Assembly: GCA_965226555.1 (NCBI GenBank) | Contig: CBDDDG010000013.1 | Coordinates: 1-15,932 of the forward strand | DNA: 15,932 nt | Direction of reading: 5' to 3' | From: Salinispira sp. | GTDB taxonomy: Bacteria > Spirochaetota > Spirochaetia > DSM-27196 > Salinispiraceae | In this document: positions 1 through 15,932 of the stretch, in pieces | How the letters are laid out: each line of letters starts with the position of its first letter | Position numbering within the stretch: the first letter of the stretch is position 1 | Translations under genes and position numbers: made by a program | The notes under the pieces: model-generated | Database searches by the model: none | The model's input: the letters and a program-made list of their open reading frames with translations, nothing else | Told to the model about the DNA's origin: nothing

Positions 1-195
1 GTCTCCTTCTTCATACAAGATGGCGAGAACTGTTCCCGATTCCTCACTTTCAACCTCAACCGATGCCTTGTCGGTTTCTACAGAGCAAAGGATATCGCCG
101 CCCGTAACGGTGTCGCCGACTTTGATCCGCCATTCCAGTATGAGACAACTTTCAACTGTATTGCCCTGTTTGGGCATGAGTATTGTGGAAGCCAT
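1..195 (-). CDS. 2-oxo-acid dehydrogenase E2 (dihydrolipoamide acyltransferase), N-terminal lipoyl domain; runs off the left edge
   Basis: Not in the ORF track; translated by hand from ATG at 195: MASTILMPKQGNTVESCLILEWRIKVGDTVTGGDILCSVETDKASVEVESEESGTVLAILYEEGED. ETDKA is the lipoyl-lysine motif. AAGGA RBS lies upstream. pdhC, sucB and acoC cannot be distinguished from this fragment. Confidence 0.9.
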   Translation of the reverse strand, partial: MASTILMPKQGNTVESCLILEWRIKVGDTVTGGDILCSVETDKASVEVESEESGTVLAILYEEGD

Positions 196-258
196 ATATG
201 ATCCTTATAGAAAGTATAGAAGAAAACAGAGAAGAAGATCAAGTGATGGAAAAATTTC

Positions 259-771
259 TCAGGATTCTTCCATCCGATTCTGTTTTTTTGATGATGCCTG
301 TAGTTCACGGTCAAAGGCGGCAGCGAAATTGTGCGCATCGCGGGGGAAAAATCTTCGTTCGCCGCTCCCGATGCCTGCGCCGCGGGCGCTGATTCCGCTA
401 CTGGTGCCGAGCGCGGTGTTTAGGGCATTTTTGCTCATGGAATGACGCTGGCTGAGCAGGGGGCGGATGTTTTCCTGTGTATAACAAACCCCCCGATCAT
501 TAATAACCCTGTTGCCGCGTTCAACAAGTTCGGCAGTGAGGGGGATGTCTCGGGTAATAATAAGATCACCAGTATCAAGCAGTCGGAGAATTTCCCGATC
601 TGCCGCATCATCACCCGCTTCAACCTGAACCATCCGAACTTTGGGAACACGCGGAAGCGGAATAGGCCGCGCTGCTACGAAAAGCGCCGGAATGTTTTGT
701 TTTACGGCGGCTCGAATAATTATCTGCCGTATTCTTGCCGGGCAGGAATCGGCATCAACAAGTATTTTCAT
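259..771 (-). CDS. YaiI/YqxD (UPF0178) family protein
   Basis: MKILVDADSCP...DAAD...IITRDIPL...GVCYTQENI are family motifs. The ATG at 771 overlaps the manA stop (TAATG), consistent with translational coupling. Confidence 0.9.
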   Translation of the reverse strand: MKILVDADSCPARIRQIIIRAAVKQNIPALFVAARPIPLPRVPKVRMVQVEAGDDAADREILRLLDTGDLIITRDIPLTAELVERGNRVINDRGVCYTQENIRPLLSQRHSMSKNALNTALGTSSGISARGAGIGSGERRFFPRDAHNFAAAFDRELQASSKKQNRMEES

Positions 772-2021
772 TACCGCCATTCACCGATGCCATTCACCGA
801 TGCCAGAGCGAATGATGTTTCACATGAACCCGCCCTGACTGAGAGTTCCGCATCATTTGCATTGGAGCAGGCAACAAAGGCAGCTTCACCGGTCTTCAGA
901 AGAAGTTCTTCCCGGGAAGACCGGATTGCTGCTTCACCATTCAGCATGAGTATAATGCCCATATCCTCTCCGAGTTTTTCTGCAGCCCGCAGATTCAGGA
1001 ATGAATCTGCCGGCACATCCATTACTGCAATACGGAATTCAGGCGCAAAACTTTCATACCAGCCCTCTGCGGATCTGAGCGGCCGTGTCGGATCGTCAGC
1101 ATGAAAGTGTATAACAGAGAGCAGCTCAGGAACATCAACATGCTTCTGCGTGCATCCACCCCGAAGAACATTGTCGGAGGTGGCCATAATTTCTAATCCG
1201 GTACCCTGAAGATAGGCATGAAGAATACCAGCCTTCATGAAGAGCGCCTCACCTCTTTTCAGGTTCAGAAGATTAAGATAAAGAGGCGCCAGACATCCCG
1301 GGTCGCCGGGAAACTGCCGGTGTAATTCACGGACCCAGTACCACTGCATTTCGCTGTCTGCACCGTTCCTGCCACGCGCAGCATTCCCGCCACATCCGCG
1401 GGAGGCAATTTCACTGAGAGCAGTTTCCATGAGAAGCGACTGATCCGTTTTTTTACTTCTCATAAGGCTTGAGTAGAATGTTCTGAGTATGGTATCGCTC
1501 TTTGAAGGGGGACTTCCCGCGCCCCCGTCAAGAATTGCAAGGAGTTTCTCGAGAATTGGCGGAGGTGATGTTCCGGCGATTATACGAAAATGTTCTGCGA
1601 TAATACTGGGCTTTCTGAAACCGCTGAGTGCCCAAAAATCTTCCATGGCCACAAGACATTCCGGCTTATAATTCCTATCCCGATAGTTCCGCTCGGGTGC
1701 CCCAATGTCAATTCCCTGTCTGTTTTCACGCTCGAAGCCCAGTTCTGCCTGACCTTTGCTCGGGTGGGCCTGAATGGAGAGGCTCCCATCTGCCGAGAGA
1801 ATTTTGAATAGGAAGGGAAGCTGATGTGTAGGGAGAAGCTGCCGCAGATCGCAGGCGCCCCGTGTTTCCGGTATGAGAATACTCGCTCCACGTTCGTGAG
1901 TGCCGTACCAAAGCTCGGCAACAGGATCATTGCCCGGGTTCGGTATTCCAAAAATTCTTTCAATTCTCTCCCTGCTCCCCCAAGAATAATACATGGCTGC
2001 AGGCTGAATTTTGTAGATCAC
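771..2021 (-). CDS. manA: Mannose-6-phosphate isomerase, class I
   Basis: Motifs YSWGS, ELWYGTH, LPFLFKIL, LSIQAHP, KPE, HAYLQG and EIMATSDNVLRGG. GTG start at 2021 with AGAGGG RBS chosen because the longer ORF-track start runs into the IS end. Confidence 0.93.
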   Translation of the reverse strand: MIYKIQPAAMYYSWGSRERIERIFGIPNPGNDPVAELWYGTHERGASILIPETRGACDLRQLLPTHQLPFLFKILSADGSLSIQAHPSKGQAELGFERENRQGIDIGAPERNYRDRNYKPECLVAMEDFWALSGFRKPSIIAEHFRIIAGTSPPPILEKLLAILDGGAGSPPSKSDTILRTFYSSLMRSKKTDQSLLMETALSEIASRGCGGNAARGRNGADSEMQWYWVRELHRQFPGDPGCLAPLYLNLLNLKRGEALFMKAGILHAYLQGTGLEIMATSDNVLRGGCTQKHVDVPELLSVIHFHADDPTRPLRSAEGWYESFAPEFRIAVMDVPADSFLNLRAAEKLGEDMGIILMLNGEAAIRSSREELLLKTGEAAFVACSNANDAELSVRAGSCETSFALASVNGIGEWR

Positions 2022-2170
2022 GGCATCCCTCTTACCCGCAACACGGGCTTTATGAAAAAGTTTCTCCCATAGTATGCGCACATTGCCGGACATTGTCGAG
2101 TCCGCGCATGGTTGAATTTGCACACACAATCCTGAGTAGTTGACGTATATCTGCATGCGTATTAATATAT

Positions 2171-2194
2171 CAGAACTTCCCCAACAATTTTTTT
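2171..2194. repeat. IS terminal inverted repeat (left in window)
   Basis: CAGAACTTCCCCAACAATTTTTTT is the exact reverse complement of 3773-3796. Preceded by TSD TTAATATAT. Confidence 0.95.
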
Positions 2195-2376
2195 GACGGG
2201 ATTTTGACAGAATAATGGAGGGAGATTTTGCCCTTGAGCAGTGAGTATGTGGCGGGAATACCGGGCGCATAGACCACCCCCGCCGCAGAACCGCCGGTCT
2301 GCGTTGATTGTGTGTTAGTGATATGTAAGAAATCAACTCGGTAGACTGCCCTCGAAAACGACCGATTGTTCACTAC

Positions 2377-3552
2377 TTAGCTCAACACGGACATCCCTCC
2401 TGTGCGAATCTGCCATTTTATTCCCTTCCATATCCACTGCCCTGTTATTTTCCATGTTCGCTTAACAGGAAGCGTTTTTGTTACGACGCTCGCCAGCACA
2501 TGGTTGATACTGGTGAGAAAATTGACCCCCATGGCGATGCAGCTCAACAAACACACAGCGGCGATCTTGTTATGCGTCCGTACTCTCTTGGTGCCGGTAA
2601 GATACGACATGCGCTTAAACTCATCATTCTCTATGCTCCACCGCAGATGCGCAGCTTCCCGCGCAGCAGGCAATGACAGATGTACATCACTCGTAATTAC
2701 CCAGAACGTCTCCTTCCCTTCAGTGACCCGCAGCACCAGCACCGGCACACCATGCCATTCGTCAGGCACTGCCTCAATCTGGTAACTCGTTGATCGTTGA
2801 TAATCATACCCGCTCGCGGTTTGGACTGCATCATCATAGAACCCCAGTTTTTCCATATAGCGGGCTGCGCGATCAAGGAGCAAACGCTCATATTTCCGCG
2901 GAGTTCCATCCCGCTTTACCGAACGAAATTTCACCAGAATATGACGCTTTAATTTCGCGCAGATCAGATGAAGAAAGGGCTCACACAGGTAGAGCCCATC
3001 GAAAGTTAACAATTGCGGCAGGGTATCTCCTTCCCTCAAAAGCATTTCTTCAGACCCGCGCAGTTCGTGCCCTCTGCCCTTTATCGGTCTCACGACCTGC
3101 ACATACGTTCCTGTCTTTGTCGGTCGCGCCAGCACGGTGAACCAGACGCTCCCGAAGACACAGGTGCCATCGACAATACCGATACTCCGATGAACTCCCG
3201 TGTCCAGATAACACGATTCTTCAGCGGTACTCACTGACAACTTCATACTGGTTCCCACCATCGTCGTCACTTCATCCGGTATGATCTGAGGAATCACCCG
3301 TTGTATGGTACTGTCGGAACCGACCATATACCGTTTGCTGCCGAGTAACTTCCGAACATGTTTATTCCGAGCCAGATAATCGAGATCAAACAGACTCTTG
3401 CATGAAAATAATGGCATCGATATAATGAGAGCCATTATTTGTGATAGCTGAACAACCGGTCGTTTCCGAGGGTCGGTTAAATTGGTTGTTTTCAGCATCT
3501 GTCCGAGCCTTTGAATAAAGGTTCGGGCAACACTTTTTTTCTGAGAACACAT
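2377..3552 (-). CDS. DDE transposase (DDE_Tnp_1 / IS4-like)
   Basis: Candidate catalytic motifs GIVDGT, TFDGLY and HLRWSIENDEFK (YREK-like). Lies between the TIRs. Start 3552 chosen for the GGGAGGG RBS at 3556-3562. Confidence 0.9.
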   Translation of the reverse strand: MCSQKKSVARTFIQRLGQMLKTTNLTDPRKRPVVQLSQIMALIISMPLFSCKSLFDLDYLARNKHVRKLLGSKRYMVGSDSTIQRVIPQIIPDEVTTMVGTSMKLSVSTAEESCYLDTGVHRSIGIVDGTCVFGSVWFTVLARPTKTGTYVQVVRPIKGRGHELRGSEEMLLREGDTLPQLLTFDGLYLCEPFLHLICAKLKRHILVKFRSVKRDGTPRKYERLLLDRAARYMEKLGFYDDAVQTASGYDYQRSTSYQIEAVPDEWHGVPVLVLRVTEGKETFWVITSDVHLSLPAAREAAHLRWSIENDEFKRMSYLTGTKRVRTHNKIAAVCLLSCIAMGVNFLTSINHVLASVVTKTLPVKRTWKITGQWIWKGIKWQIRTGGMSVLS

Positions 3553-3572
3553 AGTCCCTCCCATAATTGGGA

Positions 3573-3601
3573 ATTGTACCGCGCATAAGTGGATTTTCGA
3601 A
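3573..3601 (-). promoter_or_regulatory. Putative transposase promoter (pIN)
   Basis: Minus strand TTCGAA-17 bp-TACAAT just upstream of the RBS. Confidence 0.55.
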
Positions 3602-3673
3602 GGGGGGTATGCTCATTTTGCGTGCAAAGAAGACTATGTTCAGGTATAATTTCAGTAAAAGTGAAATTTTTGA

Positions 3674-3702
3674 TTGACACAAAGCTTTTCATTAGGTAAA
3701 AT
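3674..3702 (+). promoter_or_regulatory. Outward-facing sigma70-type promoter inside the IS
   Basis: TTGACA (3674-3679)-17 bp-TAAAAT (3697-3702). A second candidate, GTGCAA-17 bp-TATAAT, lies at 3622-3650. Confidence 0.7.
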
Positions 3703-3772
3703 ACTCAGGAATTCTGTGATGTGTTGATGATTAGTAGATCATGAATGCGTATGAGAGTTCCTGCAATGGTCT

Positions 3773-3796
3773 AAAAAAATTGTTGGGGAAGTTCTG
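3773..3796. repeat. IS terminal inverted repeat (right in window)
   Basis: AAAAAAATTGTTGGGGAAGTTCTG followed by TSD TTAATATAT. Confidence 0.95.
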
Positions 3797-3814
3797 TTAA
3801 TATATGAGAAACTT

Positions 3815-3843
3815 TTGCATTTTGTAAAACTTTGTGATATTAT
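3815..3843 (+). promoter_or_regulatory. Putative native promoter of the lipoprotein gene
   Basis: TTGCAT-17 bp-TATTAT with an extended -10 TG at 3835-3836. Confidence 0.6.
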
Positions 3844-3916
3844 TCAGTAACCTTAGAAATAATGGCGGACGCCGTCAGATTTTTTCTGAGGAAAAATTAC
3901 CTTGGAGGTAACATAT

Positions 3917-5581
3917 ATGAAAATTATGTCATACAGAGGAATAACTCTTTTCACTTTCTGTGCAATGGTTATTGTGTTAATGGCGGGGTGTCCGATGCTA
4001 ACCGCGTCGCCTGCCATGTATTCTCCAACTCTCACAGCGGGAAGCGAACAGCTTACCGCATCGTGGGTTGATCCGACTACATGGAATTGGGGGGAGAACA
4101 ACGCAGGAAACGATATTACTGAATATCATCTGCGTTATCGGGAAGACGGTAGCGAGGGCTGGACGGAGATTACCTCCGGTATTACCGGCACAAGCCACAC
4201 CATTACCGAGCTGACAAACGGTCTCAGTTATGTTGTGCAGGTGCGTGCCGTCAACGCGCAGGGCACCGGCGGCTGGTCGGCATCTGCCACGGCAACACCT
4301 ACTGCGCCCCCTGCCGCGCCGGGTACCATGGCTGCTCCAACCCTTTATGCGGGCACTGGGCGGCTTGTTGCGACATGGACTGCGCCAACCGATACCGGCG
4401 GCAGCCCCATTACCGGGTATGAGCTGCAATATCGCATAGGCGGCGGAGCATGGACACAAATTACCGAAGGCATCACCGGTACATACCACAGCATTACGGG
4501 ACTGACAAACGGCATTGTCTACGGAGTACAGATGCGCGCCGTCAATGCAGTCGGCGCTGGACCATGGTCTCCATTTGCAATAGGAAGGCCGCTACTACTA
4601 CGGACACAGACTCCTGCGGGTACGGCAAGGGTTGTAAGCCTTTCAGATGCCGTTAATGTCATTATTGCCAGTGAAAACCTCAGCGTTTATTTGATTACGG
4701 GCACTCACGGGGTCGATGACTCAGGAAACATTACGGTAAACCCCGCAACGACGCCTGTTGGGGTCACCCCGCCGACAGTTGATGAAAGTACCGGACTTGT
4801 TACGGTTACCGCAGGTACAACGGCAGGAACATATCTGGTATATGGCACTACTGGAACCGGAGATACAGCTACATTCCTGTTTGCCGAATATTTCTATGTT
4901 ACTGAAAGTCCAACAACTAAAGCTGAACTGAGCGCAGCGGTAACTACGGCGATAGGAGTCATCACCGACACCAATGACTCCGGAATCTGGGGCAATACTG
5001 CCGACCTCAACTACATTATTACCACGGCACTAACGGATATACGTGAACTATTCACTGGACAAATCGAATTCAATGGCGATATCTCGGGCTGGGATGTCAG
5101 CTCGGTAACGAATATGAGATCTATGTTCAATTACGCAAGCGCATTCAATGGTGATATCTCAAGATGGGATGTCAGCTCGGTAGAGAATATGCAATTTATG
5201 TTCAATAACGCAAGCGCATTCAATGGCGATATCTCAAGATGGGATGTCAGCTCGGTAGAGAATATGGGTGATGTGTTCAGTTTCGCAAGCGCATTCAATG
5301 GCGATATTTCCGGCTGGGATGTCAGTTTGGTAACGAATATGGGGGATATGTTCAATGGCGCAAGCGCATTCAATGGCGATATTTCCGGCTGGGATGTCAG
5401 TTCGGTAACGAATATGGATGATATGTTCAATAACGCGAACGTATTCGCTCAAGATCTTGAGGAATGGAAGGATCATTTGCCGCTCATTGATGCTTCCGGC
5501 ACATACACCGGAACCAAAAACAATATGTTTACGAATTCCGGCGTGACAGGTGATCTGATTCCCTCATGGTATGCAGAGTAG
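3917..5581 (+). CDS. Surface lipoprotein with two fibronectin type III domains and C-terminal DUF285 (BspA-like, 25-aa) repeats
   Basis: GGAGG RBS at 3904-3908. Signal peptide ends VLMAG-C. Two FN3 units (W..P...ITxYxLxYR...W...HxITxLTNG..Y.VQ.RAVN..G.G.WS). Five FNGDISxWDVSxVxNMxxMF-type repeats. Confidence 0.9.
   Translation: MKIMSYRGITLFTFCAMVIVLMAGCPMLTASPAMYSPTLTAGSEQLTASWVDPTTWNWGENNAGNDITEYHLRYREDGSEGWTEITSGITGTSHTITELTNGLSYVVQVRAVNAQGTGGWSASATATPTAPPAAPGTMAAPTLYAGTGRLVATWTAPTDTGGSPITGYELQYRIGGGAWTQITEGITGTYHSITGLTNGIVYGVQMRAVNAVGAGPWSPFAIGRPLLLRTQTPAGTARVVSLSDAVNVIIASENLSVYLITGTHGVDDSGNITVNPATTPVGVTPPTVDESTGLVTVTAGTTAGTYLVYGTTGTGDTATFLFAEYFYVTESPTTKAELSAAVTTAIGVITDTNDSGIWGNTADLNYIITTALTDIRELFTGQIEFNGDISGWDVSSVTNMRSMFNYASAFNGDISRWDVSSVENMQFMFNNASAFNGDISRWDVSSVENMGDVFSFASAFNGDISGWDVSLVTNMGDMFNGASAFNGDISGWDVSSVTNMDDMFNNANVFAQDLEEWKDHLPLIDASGTYTGTKNNMFTNSGVTGDLIPSWYAE
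5069..5443 (+). repeat. Five tandem 75-bp coding repeats (DUF285 units)
   Basis: TTCAATGG(C/T)GATAT recurs at 5069, 5144, 5219, 5294 and 5369. Confidence 0.92.
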
Positions 5582-5625
5582 TTTCATAGCCCGCAGCGGC
5601 TAATTGAAACGTTGCAATTCAACTC

Positions 5626-5811
5626 AGGCAGGCACGGATTTGCCCCGGACGCATGGGCGAGCAGGAGGCGCAAGCCTCCGACCAGCCCCGTGCCTGCCTT
5701 TTTTCGATAAGACGGCTGGTCGGCGCTCCGCGCTGCTTGCCATGCGTCCGGGCTGATCAAACAGTAATATCCCAAAATAATAAAACTTTTTACAAAGGCC
5801 TCGCGCGGAGC
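5626..5811. other. Highly structured GC-rich intergenic element (candidate ncRNA, attenuator or non-autonomous repeat element)
   Basis: Complementary pairs: 5644-5656/5740-5752 (13 bp), 5665-5669/5674-5678 (GCAA loop), 5678-5687/5714-5723 (10 bp), 5626-5637/5688-5699 (12 bp, running into T6) and 5725-5733/5803-5811 (9 bp). Confidence 0.55.
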
Positions 5812-6251
5812 ATTGTTCCGGGGAGCGTGCGTCAATACACCCTATAATACAGGGCGAATTCAACCATACGCTCACCCCCATTCCTGCCCACTCATCCCTC
5901 CTTCCCCCATTCCCGAAAAAAATTCACACATTTTGCAAAATTCTTTTCAAAAACATAGTCAAGAATGACATTTTACCCGTTATAGATATAGGAGGAATGT
6001 TTATGAAAAAATCATCCCAGAGCAAAGGCCATATCCACGACATAGCCTTCAAGATCGCCTACTACAGAACCCCCCGTATGATTCCCGACCTGCTGCGGTT
6101 GTTCTGTGAGGATACAACTCTTACCAAGCTGGATATGGACAAAATCCGCATTGAAACCCCCAGCTACATTGCAGGAAAAAAGAACCTTCTCTGCGATCTC
6201 GTTGTCAGCGCCCCCTTCCTGTCAGACCCCGACCGGAAGGCCCTGTTCATT

Positions 6252-6380
6252 ACTGAAAATTTTGCGGAGCAAAATTTTCCAATGAGGATTCTCTCATCTA
6301 TACTCTTGATTCTCTCACGGTATAGAAAGTTTTGCCTTGGAAAATTGTGCAAGCACAATTTCCAGTAGCAAAACTTTCGT
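6252..6380. mobile_element. Palindromic insert 1 (129 bp, AC...GT)
   Basis: Hairpin at 6255-6279, 45-bp linker, compound hairpin at 6325-6378. Removal gives ATT|ATT GAA CAT AAA AGC. Confidence 0.8.
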
Positions 6381-6435
6381 ATTGAACATAAAAGCTACCT
6401 GCACAAACACGTTCTCACACAGATTGATGACTATC

Positions 6436-6566
6436 ACAAAGTTTTGCCACAGGCAAAACTTTCTATGAAATAGGAGAATGCTAAGCACAAAGAAAGCATT
6501 CCGAATTTGAAACTTTTGCATTGGAAAATTGTGCAGAGCACAATTTCCAGTAGCAAAAGTTTCTGT
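6436..6566. mobile_element. Palindromic insert 2 (131 bp, AC...GT)
   Basis: AAAGTTTTGCC-ACA-GGCAAAACTTT hairpin, 45-bp linker, compound hairpin at 6509-6563. Removal gives TAT C|AA TAT GCC. Confidence 0.8.
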
Positions 6567-6941
6567 AATATGCCCTCAGAAACAGCAATGTGTACAATGA
6601 AAGGGATGCTATCTATATACTTCTGTTCTACCACGGAAAAAATAAATGGAACCTCCCGCTCACATTTTACAGTTCGCATGGAAATGCTGCTTCCGAATCC
6701 ATGACCGAAGGCACGGTGGATGTCAGGGCGAGAGTATCGTACATTGTGCGCGATCTGAGGCGAATGGACAAAAGGCAGTTGGCATGGCGTTTCGATGGAA
6801 AACGATATACATCAACTTCGTTGTGGTATATAATGCGAGATAATGAAATGAATGTTGAGGGGCTGAAAGAAATTGCGCAGCTCCTGAACGGTCTGTCTTC
6901 ACAAGACTTTACTGATCTGGCAGAGAGTGTGCTGGGCTATA

Positions 6942-7043
6942 ACAAAAGTTTTGCCACAGGCAAAACTTTCTATATCTTGAGAGAATCACGAATAGAGATG
7001 AGAGAATCCAGATTAGAAAATTGTGCGGAGCACAATTTTCGGT
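6942..7043. mobile_element. Palindromic insert 3 (102 bp, AC...GT)
   Basis: Hairpin, 45-bp linker (6971-7015), then GAAAATTGTGC-GGA-GCACAATTTTC. The frame is restored only if one flanking A is also removed (TAT|ATC AAA GAT). Confidence 0.78.
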
Positions 7044-7108
7044 ATCAAAGATCTAGATCCAAAACTGTATGAACAGTTTGAGAAAATTGACAGGGAACTG
7101 TTCCCTAG

Positions 7109-7340
7109 ACAAAGTTTTGCCACAACAAAGTTTTGCCTGAGGCAAAACTTTCTATACCGTGAGAGAATCAAGAGTATAGATGAGAGAATCCTCATTGAAA
7201 AATTGTGCAGAGCACAATTTTTCAGTGGCAAAACTTTCTACAAAATGAGAGAATGCCAAGCGCAACGAGGCATGCCAAATTTGAAACTTTTGCTACTGGA
7301 AATTGTGCTCTGCACAATTTTCCAATGCAAAAGTTTCAGT
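7109..7340. mobile_element. Palindromic insert 4 (232 bp): a 130-bp outer copy with a nested 102-bp copy at 7125-7226
   Basis: The outer copy is homologous to insert 2; the inner copy is homologous to inserts 3 and 1. Removal of the whole gives CCT AG|A GGA GAA AAC AGT ATG. Confidence 0.8.
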
Positions 7341-7353
7341 AGGAGAAAACAGT

Positions 7354-7692
7354 ATGCGGACATATAATATTACCAACGCCTTCGTCAGGGAAGGCATTGC
7401 GAAGGGCCGGATTGAGGGTCTTGAGCAGGGTATCACAAAGGGCCGGGCTGAGGGCATTGAGAAAGGTATTCTGAAAGGACTGCGAACAGGTCGTGAAGAA
7501 GGATTGCAGACAGGTCGTGAAGAAGGACTTCAGAAGGGGCTACAGGCAGGCCGCGCTGAGGGGCATATTGAGGAGCGGAGAAAAAACGCCCGCAGTATGT
7601 TTTTGGAAGGGTTGTCGACCGAGGCTGTTCAGAGAATTACCGGGCTGAGCGATGAGGAAATGCGGACAGTGCGGAACGCGACTACCGGATAA
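7354..7692 (+). CDS. RpnS-like small C-terminal protein from an internal start (putative antitoxin), 112 aa
   Basis: AGGAG at 7341-7345 precedes ATG 7354. EG/KG repeats (ACAGGTCGTGAAGAAGGA at 7486 and 7510) and an ITGLSDEE end. Internal RBS/ATG producing RpnS is established for Rpn genes. Confidence 0.7.
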   Translation: MRTYNITNAFVREGIAKGRIEGLEQGITKGRAEGIEKGILKGLRTGREEGLQTGREEGLQKGLQAGRAEGHIEERRKNARSMFLEGLSTEAVQRITGLSDEEMRTVRNATTG

Positions 7693-7742
7693 TCACCCTT
7701 GTGATATACACGAGGCGCAGCGCGCCAATAAGGAGAATGTAC

Positions 7743-8675
7743 ATGATTTTCAGACGGCATTATATGACTTCTGTTTTTTTCACATTGATAATTACCCTCA
7801 TCGTTACCATGCTGACGCTCAGCGGATGCCCGGCTCCAGACGTAGATGATCCCGGAAATGGAGGCGGTTCTGGTGATGGGGAACCCGCAAAACTGGAATT
7901 TGCTCCTTCCCGTAACAGCAGTCAGGATTTCAATGTTCTGGATCCCTTGAATGTTTTCCCCCAAGGCATCTGGTCAAACGGGACGATAATGTGGGCGGCA
8001 GATAGTAATAGCCTGAAAATCTATGCCTACAATCTGAGTACCAAATCCCGTATGTCAGGCGAAGACATTCCACGCAATGGCGCTACTCTCGGCTATCCTC
8101 CGGGTTATATCTGGTCAAATGGAACAACGATGTGGGTAACAGAGAGCGTGAATGGTGAGAATGATAACATCAATGCCTACAAGCTGAGTGACGGAACCCG
8201 CGATTCAAGCAAAAATTTCACTACCCTTGGGGAACTCCACATAACTACTTCAGGGATATGGTCGGACGGGGAGACAATGTGGATATTGGAAGGTCACCAG
8301 TCTGCTGCCAATGCCTATGCCTACCATCTGCCTGACGGATCCGATGATGATGGTGCCGCCGATTCCGGAAAAACTATCGACCTGGGCAAGCCGTACACTT
8401 CCAAAGGTATGTGGTCAAATGGAACCACACTGTGGGTACTGCGTGATATTTCTGTTCAGGATCTTGGGTTCCTTGGCAGTCAGCTGAGCGCTTACGACAT
8501 ACATACCAGGTCCTCTGACAATGCAAAAACTGTTTATCCCCGTGTTATCGAAACGGGTTTCGAAAACGCATTTGGTTCAGGTATCTGGTCAGATGGAAGA
8601 ACGATGTGGATAGCAAGTTTTGAGCCGGGGAATCCTAAAATCTATGCCTACACCCTGTTTAAGGAAAGTGAATAA
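7743..8675 (+). CDS. Lipoprotein with five (G/Y)(I/M)WS(D/N)GxxMW-type ...AY repeats, probably a beta-propeller
   Basis: AAGGAG RBS at 7730-7735. Lipobox LSG-C, Gly/Asp/Pro tether, five units of about 50 aa. Confidence 0.8.
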   Translation: MIFRRHYMTSVFFTLIITLIVTMLTLSGCPAPDVDDPGNGGGSGDGEPAKLEFAPSRNSSQDFNVLDPLNVFPQGIWSNGTIMWAADSNSLKIYAYNLSTKSRMSGEDIPRNGATLGYPPGYIWSNGTTMWVTESVNGENDNINAYKLSDGTRDSSKNFTTLGELHITTSGIWSDGETMWILEGHQSAANAYAYHLPDGSDDDGAADSGKTIDLGKPYTSKGMWSNGTTLWVLRDISVQDLGFLGSQLSAYDIHTRSSDNAKTVYPRVIETGFENAFGSGIWSDGRTMWIASFEPGNPKIYAYTLFKESE

Positions 8676-8686
8676 GGGAAGGGATT

Positions 8687-10588
8687 GTGAAAACATTTCG
8701 AGAAATGCTTTCTGGAAAAATTCTTGAAGCAGTAGGAGCACTTGCGCTGGAAGAGGGACTTCAGCCTGATCTTTCAGAAATACGGCTGCAGATTGAAATA
8801 CCCCCCCGAGCTGAATTGGGCGATATCTCCTTCCCGATGTTCCCTTTTGCAAAAGTCCTCCGAATGTCTCCCAAAATAATAGCAGAGAAGCTGCTTCCGC
8901 ATCTTGTTTTCCGAAAAATTGATGCCGCGGCAGCAGGTCCCTATATCAATATTCACTATAAACGCGCTGCATACACCGACCGTGTTATAAAAACTCTCCT
9001 GGAAATGCGGGGAGCTCCGCAGGGAGAGCATGCATCAGCAGGAGAAACACACTCAGAAAAGCAGCCTGTATATGGCTCAAGCAGCAATTATGCGGGTGAA
9101 AAAATAATTATTGAATTTTCTTCTCCGAATACCAACAAACCTCTTCATCTCGGGCATCTGCGAAACAATGCCCTCGGTGAGTCGCTGGCCCGCATTCTCA
9201 GAGCAAACGGGGCTGAAGTTCATACAGTGAACCTTATTAATGACCGCGGCATCCACATCTGCAAGTCAATGCTGGCATATCAGGAAGAAGGGGGCGGCCG
9301 AAGCCCTGAAGATGCGGGGATGAAGCCTGACCATTTTGTCGGTACATACTATATCACGTTCAATGAAATAGCTCGGAAAGATCCCGAAGCAGAACAGCGG
9401 GCGCAGGATATGCTCAGGCGCTGGGAAGCAGGCGATGAGGAAACAGTGAAGCTCTGGAAAACCATGAATACCTGGACCATGGAGGGCTTGCTTGAAACAT
9501 ATCGGCGCATCGGGATACGTTTCGACACACTGTATTACGAAAGTGATACATATGCCGTTGGTCGGGAATGTGTGCTGCGCGGTCTGGAGCAGGGGCTGTT
9601 TTATAAAGATGAGAAGGGTACAATTCGGGTCGATCTCAGCGATATCGGACTTGATGACAAGGTGCTGCTCCGCAGCGATGGAACCAGTGTCTACATTACT
9701 CAGGACATTGGCACTGCCATTGCCCGTCATGGAGATTGGCCCTTTGACCGTATGTTCTATGTGGTGGCAAACGAACAAAACTATCATTTTCAGGTACTTT
9801 TTCATGTACTGGGAATGCTCGGCCTCGCCTGGGCGCAGAACCTCCGCCATGTTTCCTACGGCATGGTGAACCTGCCCGATGGCAGAATGAAAAGCCGCGA
9901 GGGCACCGTTGTCGATGCCGATGACCTCCTCAACACCCTCCACCGCCTCGCCCGCGCCCAAATCCGCGAAAAAACCCCTACCGCCGTGCCGCCAACCGAT
10001 CCCGTGCTGCCAACCGACCCCGTGCCGCCATCCAACCCCGCGCCGCCAACCGACCCCGACCCCGCAACCCTCGAGCCGACCACACCCGATCCTGAACATA
10101 TTGCCGAATCGGTTGCGCTGGCTGCGGTAAACTTCTACCTGCTCCAGGTTTCTCCATCGAAGGACATGATATTCCGACAGGAAGATTCCATTTCATTCAC
10201 CGGCAACAGCGGCCCCTATCTGCAATATGTGGGCGCCCGTATTTCCAGTATTTTCCGCAAATACCGCAAGCACCGCTCCGAGCTGCCGCCGCCCGAGACG
10301 ATCAACTGGGGGCTTCTGAACGCTGATATTGAGTGGGAACTCATAAAGACCATTGCCCGTTTTCCGGATATTGTCGAACAGTCCGGCAGAAAATACGATC
10401 CGTCAATTATCACATCTGCCCTTTACGAACTTGGAAAAACCTTTTCCCGCTTCTATCATGATTATCCAATTCTTAACTGCCCCCGCCCCGAACTTCGAGA
10501 TGCCCGCCTGTATATTGCCTGGGCAGTTCGGGAAGTGTTAAAGGAAGGTTTCTTCCTGCTCAACATTCCCTTTCTTGAGAGCATGTAA
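8687..10588 (+). CDS. argS: Arginine--tRNA ligase
   Basis: EFSSPNTNKPLHLGHLRN (HIGH motif), NDRG, LRSDGTSVY, MKSREG, GPYLQY and a C-terminal anticodon-binding domain. Confidence 0.97.
   Translation: MKTFREMLSGKILEAVGALALEEGLQPDLSEIRLQIEIPPRAELGDISFPMFPFAKVLRMSPKIIAEKLLPHLVFRKIDAAAAGPYINIHYKRAAYTDRVIKTLLEMRGAPQGEHASAGETHSEKQPVYGSSSNYAGEKIIIEFSSPNTNKPLHLGHLRNNALGESLARILRANGAEVHTVNLINDRGIHICKSMLAYQEEGGGRSPEDAGMKPDHFVGTYYITFNEIARKDPEAEQRAQDMLRRWEAGDEETVKLWKTMNTWTMEGLLETYRRIGIRFDTLYYESDTYAVGRECVLRGLEQGLFYKDEKGTIRVDLSDIGLDDKVLLRSDGTSVYITQDIGTAIARHGDWPFDRMFYVVANEQNYHFQVLFHVLGMLGLAWAQNLRHVSYGMVNLPDGRMKSREGTVVDADDLLNTLHRLARAQIREKTPTAVPPTDPVLPTDPVPPSNPAPPTDPDPATLEPTTPDPEHIAESVALAAVNFYLLQVSPSKDMIFRQEDSISFTGNSGPYLQYVGARISSIFRKYRKHRSELPPPETINWGLLNADIEWELIKTIARFPDIVEQSGRKYDPSIITSALYELGKTFSRFYHDYPILNCPRPELRDARLYIAWAVREVLKEGFFLLNIPFLESM
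9984..10055 (+). repeat. Four tandem 18-bp repeats encoding a Pro-rich insertion in ArgS
   Basis: ccgtgccgccaaccgatc / ccgtgctgccaaccgacc / ccgtgccgccatccaacc / ccgcgccgccaaccgacc. Confidence 0.9.
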
Positions 10589-10616
10589 ATTCAGGGAAGT
10601 GCGGGCGCGGGTAAAA

Positions 10617-10634
10617 CCGCTGGTACACCAGCGG
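10617..10634. terminator. Hairpin after argS (possible terminator or stabiliser)
   Basis: CCGCTGG-TACA-CCAGCGG. There is no U-tract on the + strand, so the call is weak. Confidence 0.3.
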
Positions 10635-10648
10635 GGTAAACCCCTTCC

Positions 10649-10678
10649 TTGACATGTTCACGGGGAATCACATAAAGT
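10649..10678 (+). promoter_or_regulatory. Putative sppA promoter
   Basis: TTGACA-18 bp-TAAAGT; AAGGAG RBS at 10693-10698. Confidence 0.5.
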
Positions 10679-10706
10679 TTCCATGAGGTAAAAAGGAGAA
10701 ATCAAT

Positions 10707-13103
10707 ATGAAATACATCGCACTCATTACGGCCCTTTGTGCTTTTTTGCTTGCGCCCCTTAGCCCCCTTGCGGCTCTGCCGCCCGGTTCCTTGCCCGGGC
10801 TTGCGGCCACTGGGGACGATTTTCAGGCAGTCATACATAACCCCGCGGCTCTTACCCAGGGCGCGTCTTCGGGCTTCGCGGTACATGCTCAGATCAGCAG
10901 ACAAACAGATATGGGCGGCTCGCTTTCACCGATATATCTGCAATCACTCGATGTTTTTCTCAACAGCGATTTCTTTTCCTACAGTATCGGCTTTGATATT
11001 GAACACACGCTTTTTCGTCATCGGGTAGGGGCGGGTATTCCCATTGGAGACTATTTTTCCCTTGGCTTCTCGGCGCAATGGCCGGAGGATCAGTTCGCGG
11101 TTATGGATATTTCGGGCGCCTTTCTTCTCCGTCCGCTCCCATGGGTATCGCTGGGCGCTGTTGGAGGATTGAAGGGACTCCGATCCCCGTATATCGATTT
11201 TTCGCTCGCTCTCCGTCCCTTCACCGACCGCATAACCCTTGGTGTCGGCTCTTCTTTCGATGGTGAATTTGATCTTCCTCTTATTCAGGCAATTATTGAA
11301 CCGGTCGATGGTATCCGTATTGATGGCGGTTATAATTTTCAGGATAATAGCTGGAATGTCGGGCTCTCCCTCTCCGGTTCCTTCGTGAGAGCCGGAAACA
11401 ATGTACTGGTTGATAGTGAGCTGAACATCGACAGGACGAATGCCTATGTACATATTTCACCGCGGATTTTCGATTCCGTCATTGGTGAACCTCCCGGCCG
11501 CATGGTGGAATATCAGCTTGGAAAAATTACCGAGCAGCAGGACAATTCGCCGGACTTCCCCCTGTTCCCTCCCGTTGACCGGGGGAAGGGATTACTGGAA
11601 ACCATTCATGAAATTCATGAAATGTGCAGCGACCCCAACATCAATGGTATCATTTTCAAACAGGATACGATTTCCATGACAATTGCCAACTACGATGAAG
11701 TGCGGAAAGCATTCGCAGAATGCCGGGAGGCGGAGAAGCAGATAATTTTCTATTCCGATGTGTACGGGAATGTTTCCTATCTCTTTGCCGCTTCTATTGC
11801 CGATGAAATCTATGTGCACCCCAGCGGTTCAGTGCTTTTATTCGGCTATTCACAGGTCGATGCCTATTTGAAGAATTTTCTGGACGAACTCGGTGCCGAG
11901 GTAACTGTTTACAACAGTCATCCCGGAAAGAGCGCCTTCGATACCTTCAGCAAAGAAGCGATGACTCCCTATAAGCGGGAACAGCTTGAAGCCATTGTGA
12001 ATGCCTATTACCGCATTTTCAACGATATGCTCTCTGCGCGGAATCTCACTGTTTCTTCTCAGGAGGCAATAGACGGCGGGCCCTACTTAACTGCCCGGCG
12101 CGCCCTCGAAACGGGTCTTGTCGATGGTCTGATGTACGAGGATGACTTCGATGCCTATGTGGCAGAAAATTACGGTAAGCCCCAACTCCGCCTCAGTGGA
12201 GAACGGGTTGCCCGTTCATGGCCGGATGACGGTAACACAAAGGTTGCATTAATTTATGCGGACGGGCAAATTGTTCCCGGGCTGGGAGTGCCGGGGAGTG
12301 TTATTGGCGATAAGTCGATTATTCCGCTTATTGAGCGCGCGGCTGCTGCCCCGGACATGAAGGCAATTCTTCTGCGTGTTAATAGTCCGGGCGGAAGCGG
12401 GCTTGCCTCTGAGAATGTTGCCCGAGCTCTGGCGAAGGCCGCCGAGAAGAAACCTCTTCTGGTGTGGATGGGGAGTGTCGCAGGTTCCGGCGGCTACTAC
12501 ATTTCTGCGCCCGGCGATCTCATTATTGCCTCACCGGTAACAATTACCGGTTCAATTGGGGTCATTGCGGCCAGGGTTAATCTGGCAGGGCTTTCGGAAG
12601 AACTTGGTATTGTCTGGGACGGTGTGAAGCCTTCGTCCACAGCCAATTTTGATGATCTCTCAAACCTTTTCAGTAAGGAATCGGAACAGGAGGCGGAAAT
12701 TTGGCAGAACACAATTGCCAGTTTTTATGAGACCTTTGTGAATCAGGCTGCTGAATATCGGGGAGTTTCCCCTGCTGAAATTGATGAGGTTGCTCAGGGG
12801 TGGATATGGACAGGAGAGCAGGCGCTGGAGAATGGTCTGGTTGACAAGCTCGGAAATTACCGGGAGGTCATGGAAGAACTTGCGAATGTTCTGGGAAATT
12901 CAAACATTGAGCTTGTGCCCGTTGCGGACAAGAACGGCCGCCATGCTTCACTGTCTTTCCTCGACGCGCTTGCCGAATCCCTGTTTCCCCGTTTGACCCT
13001 TGCGGATAAACTGGAAAAAGAACTTGAAGCAATTGGCCGTCTTATTCAGAATGATATGCAGATATTGTATCTTATGCCGCGGACAGCCGAACGGGTAAAG
13101 TAA
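10707..13103 (+). CDS. sppA: Signal peptide peptidase SppA (S49, tandem-domain type) with an extra N-terminal beta-rich domain
   Basis: Motifs LRVNSPGGS, VAGSGGYY (Ser), TITGSIGV, GKSA (Lys), and GLVD twice. Signal peptide plus about 250 aa of amphipathic beta-strand pattern. Confidence 0.9.
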   Translation: MKYIALITALCAFLLAPLSPLAALPPGSLPGLAATGDDFQAVIHNPAALTQGASSGFAVHAQISRQTDMGGSLSPIYLQSLDVFLNSDFFSYSIGFDIEHTLFRHRVGAGIPIGDYFSLGFSAQWPEDQFAVMDISGAFLLRPLPWVSLGAVGGLKGLRSPYIDFSLALRPFTDRITLGVGSSFDGEFDLPLIQAIIEPVDGIRIDGGYNFQDNSWNVGLSLSGSFVRAGNNVLVDSELNIDRTNAYVHISPRIFDSVIGEPPGRMVEYQLGKITEQQDNSPDFPLFPPVDRGKGLLETIHEIHEMCSDPNINGIIFKQDTISMTIANYDEVRKAFAECREAEKQIIFYSDVYGNVSYLFAASIADEIYVHPSGSVLLFGYSQVDAYLKNFLDELGAEVTVYNSHPGKSAFDTFSKEAMTPYKREQLEAIVNAYYRIFNDMLSARNLTVSSQEAIDGGPYLTARRALETGLVDGLMYEDDFDAYVAENYGKPQLRLSGERVARSWPDDGNTKVALIYADGQIVPGLGVPGSVIGDKSIIPLIERAAAAPDMKAILLRVNSPGGSGLASENVARALAKAAEKKPLLVWMGSVAGSGGYYISAPGDLIIASPVTITGSIGVIAARVNLAGLSEELGIVWDGVKPSSTANFDDLSNLFSKESEQEAEIWQNTIASFYETFVNQAAEYRGVSPAEIDEVAQGWIWTGEQALENGLVDKLGNYREVMEELANVLGNSNIELVPVADKNGRHASLSFLDALAESLFPRLTLADKLEKELEAIGRLIQNDMQILYLMPRTAERVK

Positions 13104-13143
13104 AAAGTAAGACTTTGGCGAATGGCGAATTCGTAGGGATAAT

Positions 13144-13671
13144 ATGGACAGGAAAATAATAATGCTGGTAGTAATACTGGTAATGGTTTCAGGAATAACA
13201 TTTGCTCAGGATGTTTTGGGGGTACAAGTTGTATATCTGAATAGAGGCCATTTTTTTGGAAATGCCGAATTTTGGTATCCTACCGAATTTTGGTATCCGA
13301 CCTTGAATGGTCTTCCAATACATGAGACTGATTTCTATGCAATGATTGAACAGCAAAAGTACCGTAAACTTGCTGAAGAACAATATGAATATATACAAAC
13401 TGCAAAGAAACTCAATACTTCCTTATATTCTTTTATTTATGGTATCGAAATTTTTTCCGCAATATCTTTTATATCTGGTTCTATATATGGATCTGTATCA
13501 GATTTTAAATCAGCTGGTTGGTCGATTTTCATGGCGGTTGGCTCCATAGGAACATCGGTAGGATATATATCCTCATTTGGGATTAAAGATACACAATGGT
13601 ATAATATTGTTTCCGCCGATTACGCTATTGAAATGGCAAACAGGTTTACTTTTCGCGAAGCCTCAAGGTAA
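13144..13671 (+). CDS. Hypothetical exported/membrane protein
   Basis: 175-aa ORF with a signal peptide (TFA-Q) and two hydrophobic/Gly-rich segments. Visibly AT-rich. 18-bp duplication at 13265-13300 (EFWYPT x2). Confidence 0.7.
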   Translation: MDRKIIMLVVILVMVSGITFAQDVLGVQVVYLNRGHFFGNAEFWYPTEFWYPTLNGLPIHETDFYAMIEQQKYRKLAEEQYEYIQTAKKLNTSLYSFIYGIEIFSAISFISGSIYGSVSDFKSAGWSIFMAVGSIGTSVGYISSFGIKDTQWYNIVSADYAIEMANRFTFREASR

Positions 13672-13725
13672 CGTTAGGGAATGGCAACGGCAAAAAACTA
13701 ACGGCTGACAGGAGCGGCCGCATCG

Positions 13726-14001
13726 CTATCTTTGTTCGGCATTACCTTCAAGAAATTTCATGAGGGCATCGGCTGCTTCTGCCTCATCGCTTCCGTTGAA
13801 GGTGAGTGCTACTTCGTGATCCTGCGCGCAGGCGATTTTGATAATTTTTACGAGGCTTTTCGCGTTAACGGCTTCTCCGTTCCGACTGATGTTCTGTATG
13901 GTAATAGTACATTCAAAGGTTTTGGCGATTTTGACAAAGGTGTTTGCGGGCCGTGCGTGCAGACCAACGGCGAATATAATACGGGTAGTTTCTCTGATCA
14001 T
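13726..14001 (-). CDS. ptsH: HPr family phosphocarrier protein
   Basis: GLHARPA (His15), VNAKS (Ser46), GSDEAEA. ATG 14001 with AGGA upstream. Confidence 0.92.
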   Translation of the reverse strand: MIRETTRIIFAVGLHARPANTFVKIAKTFECTITIQNISRNGEAVNAKSLVKIIKIACAQDHEVALTFNGSDEAEAADALMKFLEGNAEQR

Positions 14002-14285
14002 GAATTCCTGATTATGTTCCTTCAATACTGATAATGCTTCCAGCCCGGATAACGCGGGAGTGAAGTTTCCGGCAGGGTGATATCTCCCTGCATTTCAGGA
14101 TCATCCAAGCCGTTATATTTTAATACAAGATGTCCGATGTTTCGTATTTCCGTCCAATTTGCATCAGTTTACGTGAAACTTTTACATAAAGCAAGCGTTT
14201 CAGATGGCACAATACTGCAAAGAGATGCCGTAAAAAGCCGGGAACTGGCTGAAAAAACACGGGAAGGACGGCAGCGATCATCAGG

Positions 14286-15932
14286 TCAAATTAAATTGTA
14301 ATGTTTTGCTGTATTGAATAATTCATTGTTCCAGATTGAATTTCTGAGGAAGAGCCGCTTATCCATTGGTTCATCGATGTTGTTTGAACGTTCCTGAAGA
14401 ATTTTTACAGCTCTGCTGAGGGTGGTAAGCCAATCTCTCTTATTTTCATTTTCTGACGACTGTTCCAACATACAAAAGTACCAGTAAAGAATGATGCTCA
14501 AATGAGGATCGGTTGAAGAAATCTTTTTTTCCCGCGTGAGCCAATGAAAATTTTTGATGCTTTCTGCGGTATTTCCATTCTTTCCCATGGCAAAGGCAGT
14601 AATGGCATAACGGAAATTAATGAGAGTGCTATCTTCCGCAGGATCTGAGACAAGCAGATCTTCAATCCATGAAAAACCGTGTTTCCATGTAAACATAAAG
14701 GAGAATGGGTGCCGCTTCGGTTCTTCCTCTTCCTGCCGGAGAACTGTGAGCGCGTTGCTGAACTGTCCCTGCATAATGAACGATTCAGCCGTAAACAGAA
14801 TTACTTCAGATGTCTGCGGAAGTCGTTTAAGTATTTTCATACCTGCTTTGAACATCCCCTGATACATAAAGCAGCGGGCAATCCATGCGTAAAAGAGCTC
14901 ATGAATTGCCTGAAATCCTCTATGAACGTTGAGTTGCCGTGTAAGGGTAATTTGCGCTTTCTGATACTCTCCCAAAGCAAAGTAGGTCCGCGCCATGAGA
15001 AAGGACGCAGCATCTACCCAACTGTACTGTCCTGTTCGGGTCAATTGCGCGATGAGACCATGTTCGCCTGTGAGTTTGTGCTTGACATCACTGTATCTGC
15101 ACCGTACAAAATTATTCAGCACAGACATAAATTGCGCAAATATACAATTATATTCACCGGCGGTATTGTTTTTTTCTACTATTGAAAAATAGTAAAGAGC
15201 TTCTTGGTGTCTGCTAAGACGATGATAGAGGTATCCGAAGATATTGTTTGCCTGACAGAGGATCTGTTCATCGTTGATCTGCTGGGCAAGAATAATTGCT
15301 TCCTTACAATTGTGCTTTGCCTTGTGAATATCTTCTCCCTGTATGTGGATGCCTGTTTGTATAATGAGCCATTGTTCTTTCCAGAAATTGTCACCTGAAA
15401 ATATACGGGGAATGCGTAATTTTGAAAATGCGCCCGATCCGCCCGATCCGCCGGATGCGCCCGATCCGCCCGATCCGCCGGATGCGCCCGCTTCCAGAGC
15501 AATTCCGGCATTAATAAGATCCTGTGTTTCCCGGTTCAAGGCAGTAGCGGCGATCTGCTGGGCCCGGGCATATTGACGGTGATCAATGAGCATTTTTGCA
15601 TAACGGTATGTGGCAGGCAGATATGTCTGATGTTTACCGAGTTTGCTTATAACATTGATGAGACCATCCTGTAATCGTACCGCATTACCGGGGTCAAATA
15701 TAAATTTCAGCGTATCGGGTATGAGGCCGGTCTGACTATATGTATGAGCGAGTCTGATAATTACATCGGTAAACGCAATGTTGTGCGTATGAAAAATATA
15801 GCCCTTTTCCCTGAGTTCCCGGTACAGTTTACCTGTTTCCGTATGCGATCGTTCCCGCGTATGAAAAAATGCAAAAACCTGATCTCTGCTCAGCCAAGGT
15901 CCAAAAAGCATAAGAAAATACAACAGTTCTCT
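14286..15932 (-). CDS. TPR-like helical protein, C-terminal part (5' end outside the window)
   Basis: The frame is open to the right edge. TPR-like segments such as FGYLYHRLSRHQEALYYF and MARTYFALGEYQKA. Confidence 0.75.
   Translation of the reverse strand, partial: RELLYFLMLFGPWLSRDQVFAFFHTRERSHTETGKLYRELREKGYIFHTHNIAFTDVIIRLAHTYSQTGLIPDTLKFIFDPGNAVRLQDGLINVISKLGKHQTYLPATYRYAKMLIDHRQYARAQQIAATALNRETQDLINAGIALEAGASGGSGGSGASGGSGGSGAFSKLRIPRIFSGDNFWKEQWLIIQTGIHIQGEDIHKAKHNCKEAIILAQQINDEQILCQANNIFGYLYHRLSRHQEALYYFSIVEKNNTAGEYNCIFAQFMSVLNNFVRCRYSDVKHKLTGEHGLIAQLTRTGQYSWVDAASFLMARTYFALGEYQKAQITLTRQLNVHRGFQAIHELFYAWIARCFMYQGMFKAGMKILKRLPQTSEVILFTAESFIMQGQFSNALTVLRQEEEEPKRHPFSFMFTWKHGFSWIEDLLVSDPAEDSTLINFRYAITAFAMGKNGNTAESIKNFHWLTREKKISSTDPHLSIILYWYFCMLEQSSENENKRDWLTTLSRAVKILQERSNNIDEPMDKRLFLRNSIWNNELFNTAKHYNLI
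15428..15490 (-). repeat. 27-bp tandem repeat (2.3 copies, 9-bp sub-period) encoding GASGGSGGS
   Basis: atgcgcccgatccgcccgatccgccgg twice, plus atgcgcccg. Confidence 0.9.

Follow-up and report, generated by a model that had tools for sequence, protein, structure and literature searches.

A stretch of 15,932 nucleotides (nt) from the spirochaete Salinispira sp. (GenBank assembly GCA_965226555.1, contig CBDDDG010000013.1, positions 1 to 15,932; hereafter the window) carries, on the forward strand at 6003..7692, a nuclease gene of the rpn type which is interrupted by four palindromic, non-coding inserts. This gene is probably an rpn paralogue inactivated by miniature inverted-repeat transposable elements (MITEs) within a fast-converting family, and it has likely retained only its antitoxin function. 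In the proposed scenario, hairpin MITEs, moved by a resident transposase of the IS5 family of insertion sequences (IS), would enter rpn genes; in the window gene, one of some 128 rpn paralogues, the four inserts disrupt the nuclease frame but spare a predicted internal antitoxin frame, which would give a toxin-off/antitoxin-on effect; and paralogues would gain and lose the inserts through gene conversion over short tracts, with no splicing involved. Direct support exists for the repeat family, its 5-bp duplications, the matching IS ends, the shared insertion sites, the fine-scale mosaicism and the intact frame that follows a Shine-Dalgarno (SD) motif and an ATG. The source contig (C13) is part of a 2.98-Mb genome (G000) in 26 contigs with an estimated completeness of 93.5% and a contamination of 6.7%.

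The original prediction described four inserts (6252-6380, 6436-6566, 6942-7043 and 7109-7340) that start with AC and end with GT and whose removal rebuilds an intact protein. These ends were confirmed, and excision of the inserts together with one additional A yields a stop-free frame of 364 amino acids (aa), exact excision alone leaving a frameshift at junction 3. The boundaries agree with empty alleles in an alignment with the 28 intact same-genome paralogues of the family concerned (F1, PF04754), which read LFIIEHKS and MRDNE. The start of the third insert had to be refined: the extra A is present as described, and the insert is now delimited as 6941-7043. A sequencing error at A6941, which had been considered, is unlikely because the A is found in three of the six copies filled at this site and in most of the depth of sequencing run X1 (14.7 of 45.8 lack it).

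The frame that is really open from the start codon (6003..6368, 121 aa) enters the first insert and ends short of the E-x-K motif, and as it stands the gene encodes this stub plus a 112-aa open reading frame (ORF). Coding piece 1 (6003..6251) carries the first two predicted catalytic Asp residues and is followed by insert 1 at site A (6252..6380, 129 nt, reverse strand) with a 124-nt MITE core at 6255-6378. The IEHKS motif lies in coding piece 2 (6381..6435), which precedes insert 2 at site B (6436..6566, 131 nt, 127-nt core 6437-6563). Coding piece 3 (6567..6940) spans site C, which is empty here and filled in other copies, and leads to insert 3 at site D (6941..7043, 103 nt), a 97-nt core at 6944-7040 extended by AAC and GGT. 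After coding piece 4 (7044..7108) follows insert 4 at site E (7109..7340, 232 nt) with a composite 228-nt core (7110-7337), in whose first hairpin a 98-nt unit with the same AA...AGT ends is nested (7126..7223); its un-nested form corresponds to the joint 7124-7227 in DNA contigs of a sequencing run. All coding pieces, inserts 2 to 4 and the nested unit are on the forward strand, the orientation of insert 1 being opposite to that of the other three. Each insert consists of a conserved core plus 4-6 flanking bases, none is flanked by a perfect target-site duplication, and folding is far stronger than that of shuffled sequence (z of -7.4, -6.5 and -4.4). As stated originally, the window contains no further full copy; there is only a 27-bp mini-copy (3808..3834) built of two 11-bp ends and a 5-nt loop.

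A genome-wide blastn search with the four inserts, as originally proposed, gave 494 merged loci, and a wider repeat library gave 689, of which 438 have both ends defined. The family is modular (25-27, 40, 54, 97-98 and 124-127 nt, plus nested composites) and has the hallmarks of a MITE: 11-bp imperfect terminal inverted repeats, no ORF and many copies. An exact 5-bp target duplication flanks 92 of 437 scored copies (4 bp in five, 6 bp in three; mean of shuffled controls 2.9), and the targets conform to a weight matrix of the form c-TNNNA-g. The genome also contains a 1340-bp IS whose ends, GAAACCTTTG..CAAA[AG]GTTTC, are near-identical to those of the MITE; seven of the ten listed copies of this IS have an AT-rich 5-bp duplication, and its transposase scores 228 bits against the IS5-family model NF033581 (cut-off 140). 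Past movement is indirectly indicated by a MITE site with perfect duplication in contig L021 that is empty in G000. L021 has been placed in an Anderseniella genome; as it shares 95.6% identity with contig C16 of G000 over 1.4 kb, it is likely mis-binned. The MITE is likely mobilised by the resident IS5-family transposase, and the transposon branch of the original prediction is supported by the genome-wide spread of the family, its 5-bp target duplications and the presence of an IS5-family partner.

Other identities were discarded. An element duplicating TA suits junctions 1 and 3 only, the family duplicating 5 bp. An assignment to PATEs or REPINs (HUH type) conflicts with the 92 exact 5-bp duplications and with the lack of a Y1 gene in the 93.5%-complete genome. 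The other IS of the window (2171-3796, 1626 bp, 395-aa ORF, about ten copies) has different ends (CAGAACTTCCCC) and a 9-bp duplication and is therefore no partner of the MITE; its ORF has no Pfam match and a weak IS1380 score (E 0.01). The IS load of the genome is very high, with IS5-like, IS481-like and further families of 6-19 ORFs each, some of which we take, from their ends and motifs, to be IS3-, IS30-, IS982- and IS1182-like. MITE cores at sites A, B and C vary among copies by inverted hairpin loops (GGA/TCC, TTT/TAA), and the core at site C shows a compensatory change in its first hairpin.

With the repeats excised, the genome yields 128 long matches to five rpn families (60, 42, 7, 11 and 8). 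The separate coding pieces of the window gene have no PF04754 match, and the identification as an Rpn nuclease with a PD-(D/E)XK fold comes from an intact F1 paralogue (90% identical over 262 aa), which reaches 40.1 bits for PF04754 (cut-off 21), as well as from the predicted catalytic residues D, D and E-x-K, which are kept across F1 (HD in 54/54 copies, the second Asp in 48/54, EHKS in 54/54). The NCBIfam profile TIGR01784 scores 46.9 bits, below its cut-off of 52.1. Whether F1 proteins would be active nucleases is uncertain, as they read E-H-K where RpnA has Gln84, and RpnA-Q84K is described as inactive in the available text of PMC5350276.

Directly 3' of insert 4 lies a Shine-Dalgarno sequence AGGAG (7341..7345), followed by an intact internal ORF (7354..7692, ATG at 7354, 112 aa, 4-residue repeats), both on the forward strand, which corresponds to the predicted layout of the antitoxin RpnS. 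The number of repeats varies across F1 copies. All five F1 insert sites are located upstream of the AGGAG-ATG, and of 68 listed rows, 66 keep the frame behind it at full length, while the other two stand for one locus with a MITE inside. A candidate internal promoter (TATACA-17-TATAAT, 10 of 12 positions, 6806..6834, forward strand), which may drive RpnS, is kept in 47 of 54 copies. These features suggest that the window gene is likely a nuclease-dead, antitoxin-only rpn paralogue.

The inserts behave as alleles shared among paralogues. Sites A to E are filled in 14, 6, 18, 6 and 17 F1 copies in mixed combinations; the window gene is filled at A, B, D and E, its nearest copy at C and E. The correlation between single-nucleotide polymorphisms (SNPs) drops within 24 nt from an r2 of 0.25 to 0.05 in F1 (54 copies), and in F2 (38 copies) from 0.42 to 0.10, reaching background by about 50 nt. 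From this single genome, the rpn family would recombine in tracts of roughly 10-25 nt. Plain dead alleles appear to spread among the paralogues as the inserts do: a 160-bp frameshifting deletion at position 114 of the F2 gene is common to 8 of 52 loci with mixed flanks, four of them MITE-bearing, and in five of 54 F1 copies the second of the predicted catalytic Asp residues is replaced by Ala, a like change being reported to inactivate RpnA in the accessible part of PMC5350276. Other lesions affect insert-bearing F1 loci in 10 of 35 cases and the remaining F1 loci in 15 of 44, a count from which 7 of 86 loci (duplicates, spurious matches, contig-end copies) were dropped and in which some copies truncated at a MITE end were scored as "other". 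Under MITE inactivation the joined protein would look intact for two reasons: the inserts arose recently compared with the diversity of the family, and the coding pieces keep being overwritten from intact paralogues.

Two groups of observations, on selection and on the junctions, weigh against this reading. Neutral decay of the coding pieces, which would have reduced the gene to an ordinary pseudogene, is not seen. Across the first 262 codons, all 25 full-length interrupted F1 copies are free of stops and frameshifts once the inserts are disregarded (three of the full-length uninterrupted copies are frameshifted), and the ratio of nonsynonymous to synonymous polymorphism (pN/pS) is 0.275 in interrupted and 0.272 in intact F1 copies. 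Private changes are distributed similarly, with synonymous to nonsynonymous counts of 16:16 in interrupted and 20:26 in intact F1 copies, or 9:10 and 13:15 after strict filtering (neutral share 0.28; p 0.06 and 0.03). The synonymous excess of interrupted F1 copies does not recur in F2 (4:8 and 10:19). Moreover, the inserts show no linkage to SNPs as close as 4-12 nt (r2 about 0.01), and one sub-lineage of F5 has no intact copy in the assembly. The members of this sub-lineage (on C17, C23, C14, C9 and C16) are separated by about 70 residues from the two F5 copies that are intact and have 1-4 inserts each. The ratio of nonsynonymous to synonymous substitution (dN/dS), a check proposed originally, is confounded by gene conversion and cannot discriminate between the readings. 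The private-variant test is also confounded, since unsampled donors exist: ten family proteins from outside the assembly hold 7 of 43 private residues, one of 17 from interrupted copies and six of 26 of the rest. Insert cores, nearly invariant at any one site, carry fewer private changes (ca. 4/7286, counted by eye) than synonymous sites (9/3975; p=0.017).

The second group shows that inserts in rpn genes do not resemble fresh IS5 insertions; it covers 20 sites that lie within these genes or at their starts (21 rows, of which one is a merged duplicate). Perfect duplications flank 2 of 101 rpn-gene copies against 32 of 84 elsewhere; the second base beyond the right end is G at 19 of the 20 rpn sites and at 6 of 78 elsewhere (p 4e-14; six rpn remnants were taken out of the latter set); and the insert lies in sense orientation at 18 of 20 (p 0.0004), both p values overstating the significance as some sites may share an origin. 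The inferred targets start with TA at 4 of 20 rpn sites, compared with 19 of 34 perfect copies, and seldom fit TANNA. At rpn sites the added sequence comprises the core and about five bases, the inner ones being foreign to the target. The AC...GT ends noticed originally are therefore a real, non-random property of inserts inside rpn genes. Identical ends are found on units nested within non-coding MITE interiors, including intergenic composites, which favours a signature at the DNA level over a splice signal. As candidate causes we consider microhomology-based copying of a cassette together with bases of the donor junction, retention of donor overhangs where the target departs from the consensus, a behaviour known from piggyBac, and survival of copies whose ends are no longer excisable. 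Template switching at hairpins, avoidance of stop codons, in-frame re-initiation and promoter creation were inspected as well, and no rule fits all 20 sites; promoter-like matches of the MITE score just 9 of 12.

This signature speaks for a second DNA-level route, in which a core-plus-five-base cassette would be inserted at fixed rpn sites and precisely removed from them, with template switching at microhomologies or the Rpn nuclease as the driving activity. It would amount to homing without co-conversion of the flanks and to a reversible toxin-off/antitoxin-on switch. Besides the fixed N-G-(T) right end and the sense bias, it could explain that no target base is lost relative to empty alleles (the extra being 3-6 nt) and that inserts lack linkage to adjacent SNPs. 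An insert 94.5% identical with the same CT..GT ends occupies the homologous codon of F3, the protein of which is 33% identical, and only two inserts and 12 SNPs distinguish the near-identical copies C10+500715 and C10+502489. RpnA, for its part, promotes RecA-independent recombination according to the text available of PMC5350276. Two uninterrupted copies (C14:64065 and C14:67033) bear element-like bases at site E (YSVGEN), and two others (C10:137885 and C14:38591) show junction-like bases at site A (FITEH); these bases are possibly footprints of insert loss, or conversion from filled donors. Against this route, conversion tracts that end where a large insertion begins would remove linkage as well, a plain deletion allele likewise spreads with mixed flanks, no sign of benefit or regulation was seen, and a candidate recombinase is missing: the genome has three PF00589 matches, judged by eye to be XerC/D-like genes plus one 175-aa fragment, and a cognate enzyme for recombination of the IS110, IS607 or integron type was not found. 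We regard the second route as rather unlikely. The proposal that the AC...NGT MITE is a dedicated removable cassette, homing in sense to fixed rpn sites without flank co-conversion, silencing the toxic nuclease but sparing its antitoxin and being cleanly removed at the DNA or RNA level, appears improbable to us.

The original prediction had also offered an intron-like lock, and the corresponding scenario would be an RNA-level removal or a ribosome bypass by way of the AC...NGT ends that provides full-length nuclease from interrupted copies. The sense bias and the conserved 3' G(T) would suit it, as would the strong folds closing near the junctions, the seemingly selected coding pieces, the lack of internal stops in the nuclease part of F5 copies with four inserts, and a single cutting rule (after NGT; 1-3 nt before the core) that by eye restores the frame at the inspected sites. 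However, the ends are shared by units nested in other MITEs, including intergenic ones, where splicing would be useless, frame-breaking copies are absent from housekeeping genes, and deletions hit insert-bearing copies as often as others. Moreover, neither reverse transcriptase, RtcB, Y1 (HUH), IS110 (PF02371) nor resolvase (PF00239) was found in the 93.5%-complete genome, and in Rfam the inserts match no family at threshold, the only hits being sub-threshold ones to miRNA and sRNA hairpins. Matched take-off and landing codons for a bypass are, by inspection, possible only at junction 1 and mismatched at junctions 2, 3 and 4. The lock is thus not supported, and we rate processing at the RNA level as very unlikely. 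Junction k-mers, suggested earlier as a test for excision, could be searched for; the 15-mers are present 6, 12, 2 and 2 times in the assembly and so are not diagnostic. DNA contigs also contain joints that skip inserts 1-4, which were rejected as proof of excision because intact paralogues supply those joints. No RNA data set was listed among the sequencing runs that contain the sequence.

The genomic distribution of the MITE bears on the same question. Copies in unique context lie between genes with unbiased orientation (21 vs 20). After MITE removal, 57 of 175 such copies have a long open frame on both sides, most of them, by eye, gene boundaries or shadow frames. Inspection by eye of these 57 candidates, eight loci of which were viewed closely, places only about four within single-copy genes, while single-copy ORFs hold ca. 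40% of the target weight. If the cell generally removed MITEs, such a depletion would not be expected. The hosts of frame-breaking MITEs in single-copy genes look dispensable by eye, so that copies are indeed scattered in dispensable DNA, an outcome regarded beforehand as speaking against a lock. A 127-nt MITE (C21:310740-310866) splits a transposase-like gene, and a 26-bp mini-copy (C10:38700-38725) is translated in frame and stop-free inside an enzyme-like single-copy gene.

Errors in assembling or polishing paralogues that are 90-95% identical could in principle mimic the mosaic of inserts and SNPs, given an assembly of 26 contigs with 6.7% contamination and a stretch that no public contig spans as a whole. 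Contigs of runs X1 and X3, however, match the right junction of insert 3 and the left junction of insert 4 without mismatch, the proteins P0021, P0110 and P0122 from other ENA contigs (possibly of the same sample) continue into insert sequence at sites C and E, and the differences between neighbours cluster in tracts. We consider an artefact most unlikely. Beyond this genome, insert 2 was absent from 40 other genomes, the F1 protein had no match at E 1e-10 in 98, and a pattern scan retrieved one locus in genome contigs and none in metagenome contigs. A protein scan of metagenomes confirmed none of 171 stretches, and in the genome holding L021 only the MITE was found.

If MITE inactivation within a converting family is correct, the window gene provides an unusually clear natural example of how a toxin-antitoxin family is pruned. 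MITEs and other null alleles would be exchanged, a few tens of bases at a time, among more than 100 family members, and toxin-antitoxin genes would become antitoxin-only loci. As a more general lesson, an intact-looking joined frame and a low dN/dS are no proof of splicing in a converting family. The junction signature, with its missing duplication, fixed G and sense bias, suggests that MITEs have another way of entering DNA which, if reversible or acting on RNA, would constitute a new bacterial gene switch and give a role to the recombination-promoting activity of Rpn. A truly removable cassette would even form an intron-like switchboard, derived from a transposon, that controls an anti-phage arsenal of 128 genes and operates without a known splicing or recombination enzyme.

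The surroundings of the gene contain further repeats. Upstream of it (5584-5860) lies a second, GC-rich repeat which also occurs in frame inside RseP-like protease and kinase-like genes (C1:81276-81364 and C10:541125-541163; names assigned by eye) and resembles a translated palindromic element. The adjacent gene (3902-5581) encodes a surface protein with FN3 and DUF285 domains, the genome containing a cluster of 188 related ORFs of the FN3 type, and within argS an 18-nt tandem repeat (9980-10073) forms a proline-rich insertion.

A literature search, to which most subscription papers were inaccessible, retrieved no report of MITEs in rpn genes. The closest relatives of the inserts are IS5-linked MITEs with ISNme1/ISPg1-type ends, namely ATR of Neisseria and BrickBuilt and MITEPgRS of Porphyromonas, as presented in the available portion of PMC4596501. 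Like these, the inserts are non-coding, multi-copy, AT-rich and folded with ends near-identical to a resident IS5 element, the IS end found here (GAAACCTTTGCA) being one base off the ISNme1/ISPg1-type end GAGACCTTTGCA tabulated there. They differ by their several hundred copies, compared with 10-20, by hairpin modules of 25-27, 54, 98 and 126 nt, by about 100 copies within the coding sequence of one superfamily, and by a second junction signature. Short length, strong palindromes and the frequent lack of target duplication inside rpn genes recall PATEs and REPINs, which are moved by HUH/Y1 enzymes, whereas here 92 exact 5-bp duplications and no Y1 gene were found. The translated 26-bp copy is reminiscent of Rickettsia palindromic elements, unlike the four window inserts, which bring in stop codons or a frameshift. 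Translational bypass elements (T4 gene 60, byps) share the structured insert in an otherwise intact frame; the inserts here are 103-232 nt long and lack matched codons at three of four junctions. The host gene resembles the genes-within-genes RpnL/RpnS, for which stand-alone RpnS genes have also been described, in its PF04754 domain, the internal SD-ATG, the C-terminal ORF with 4-residue repeats and the tandem arrays, as far as the accessible text of PMC10400941 extends. In contrast to the up to 26 copies cited there, about 128 are present here, and antitoxin-only loci would arise via MITE insertion. Finally, the mosaic copies and short tracts parallel vlsE of Borrelia, likewise a spirochaete, for which the consulted part of PMC9159922 gives a mean tract of 16.4 bp, linkage being gone by about 25 nt in the present case. 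Other than in vlsE, neither a single expression site nor an array of silent cassettes was seen in this genome, the only one from which conversion is deduced here, and insertions of 100-230 nt would travel as alleles among the rpn paralogues.

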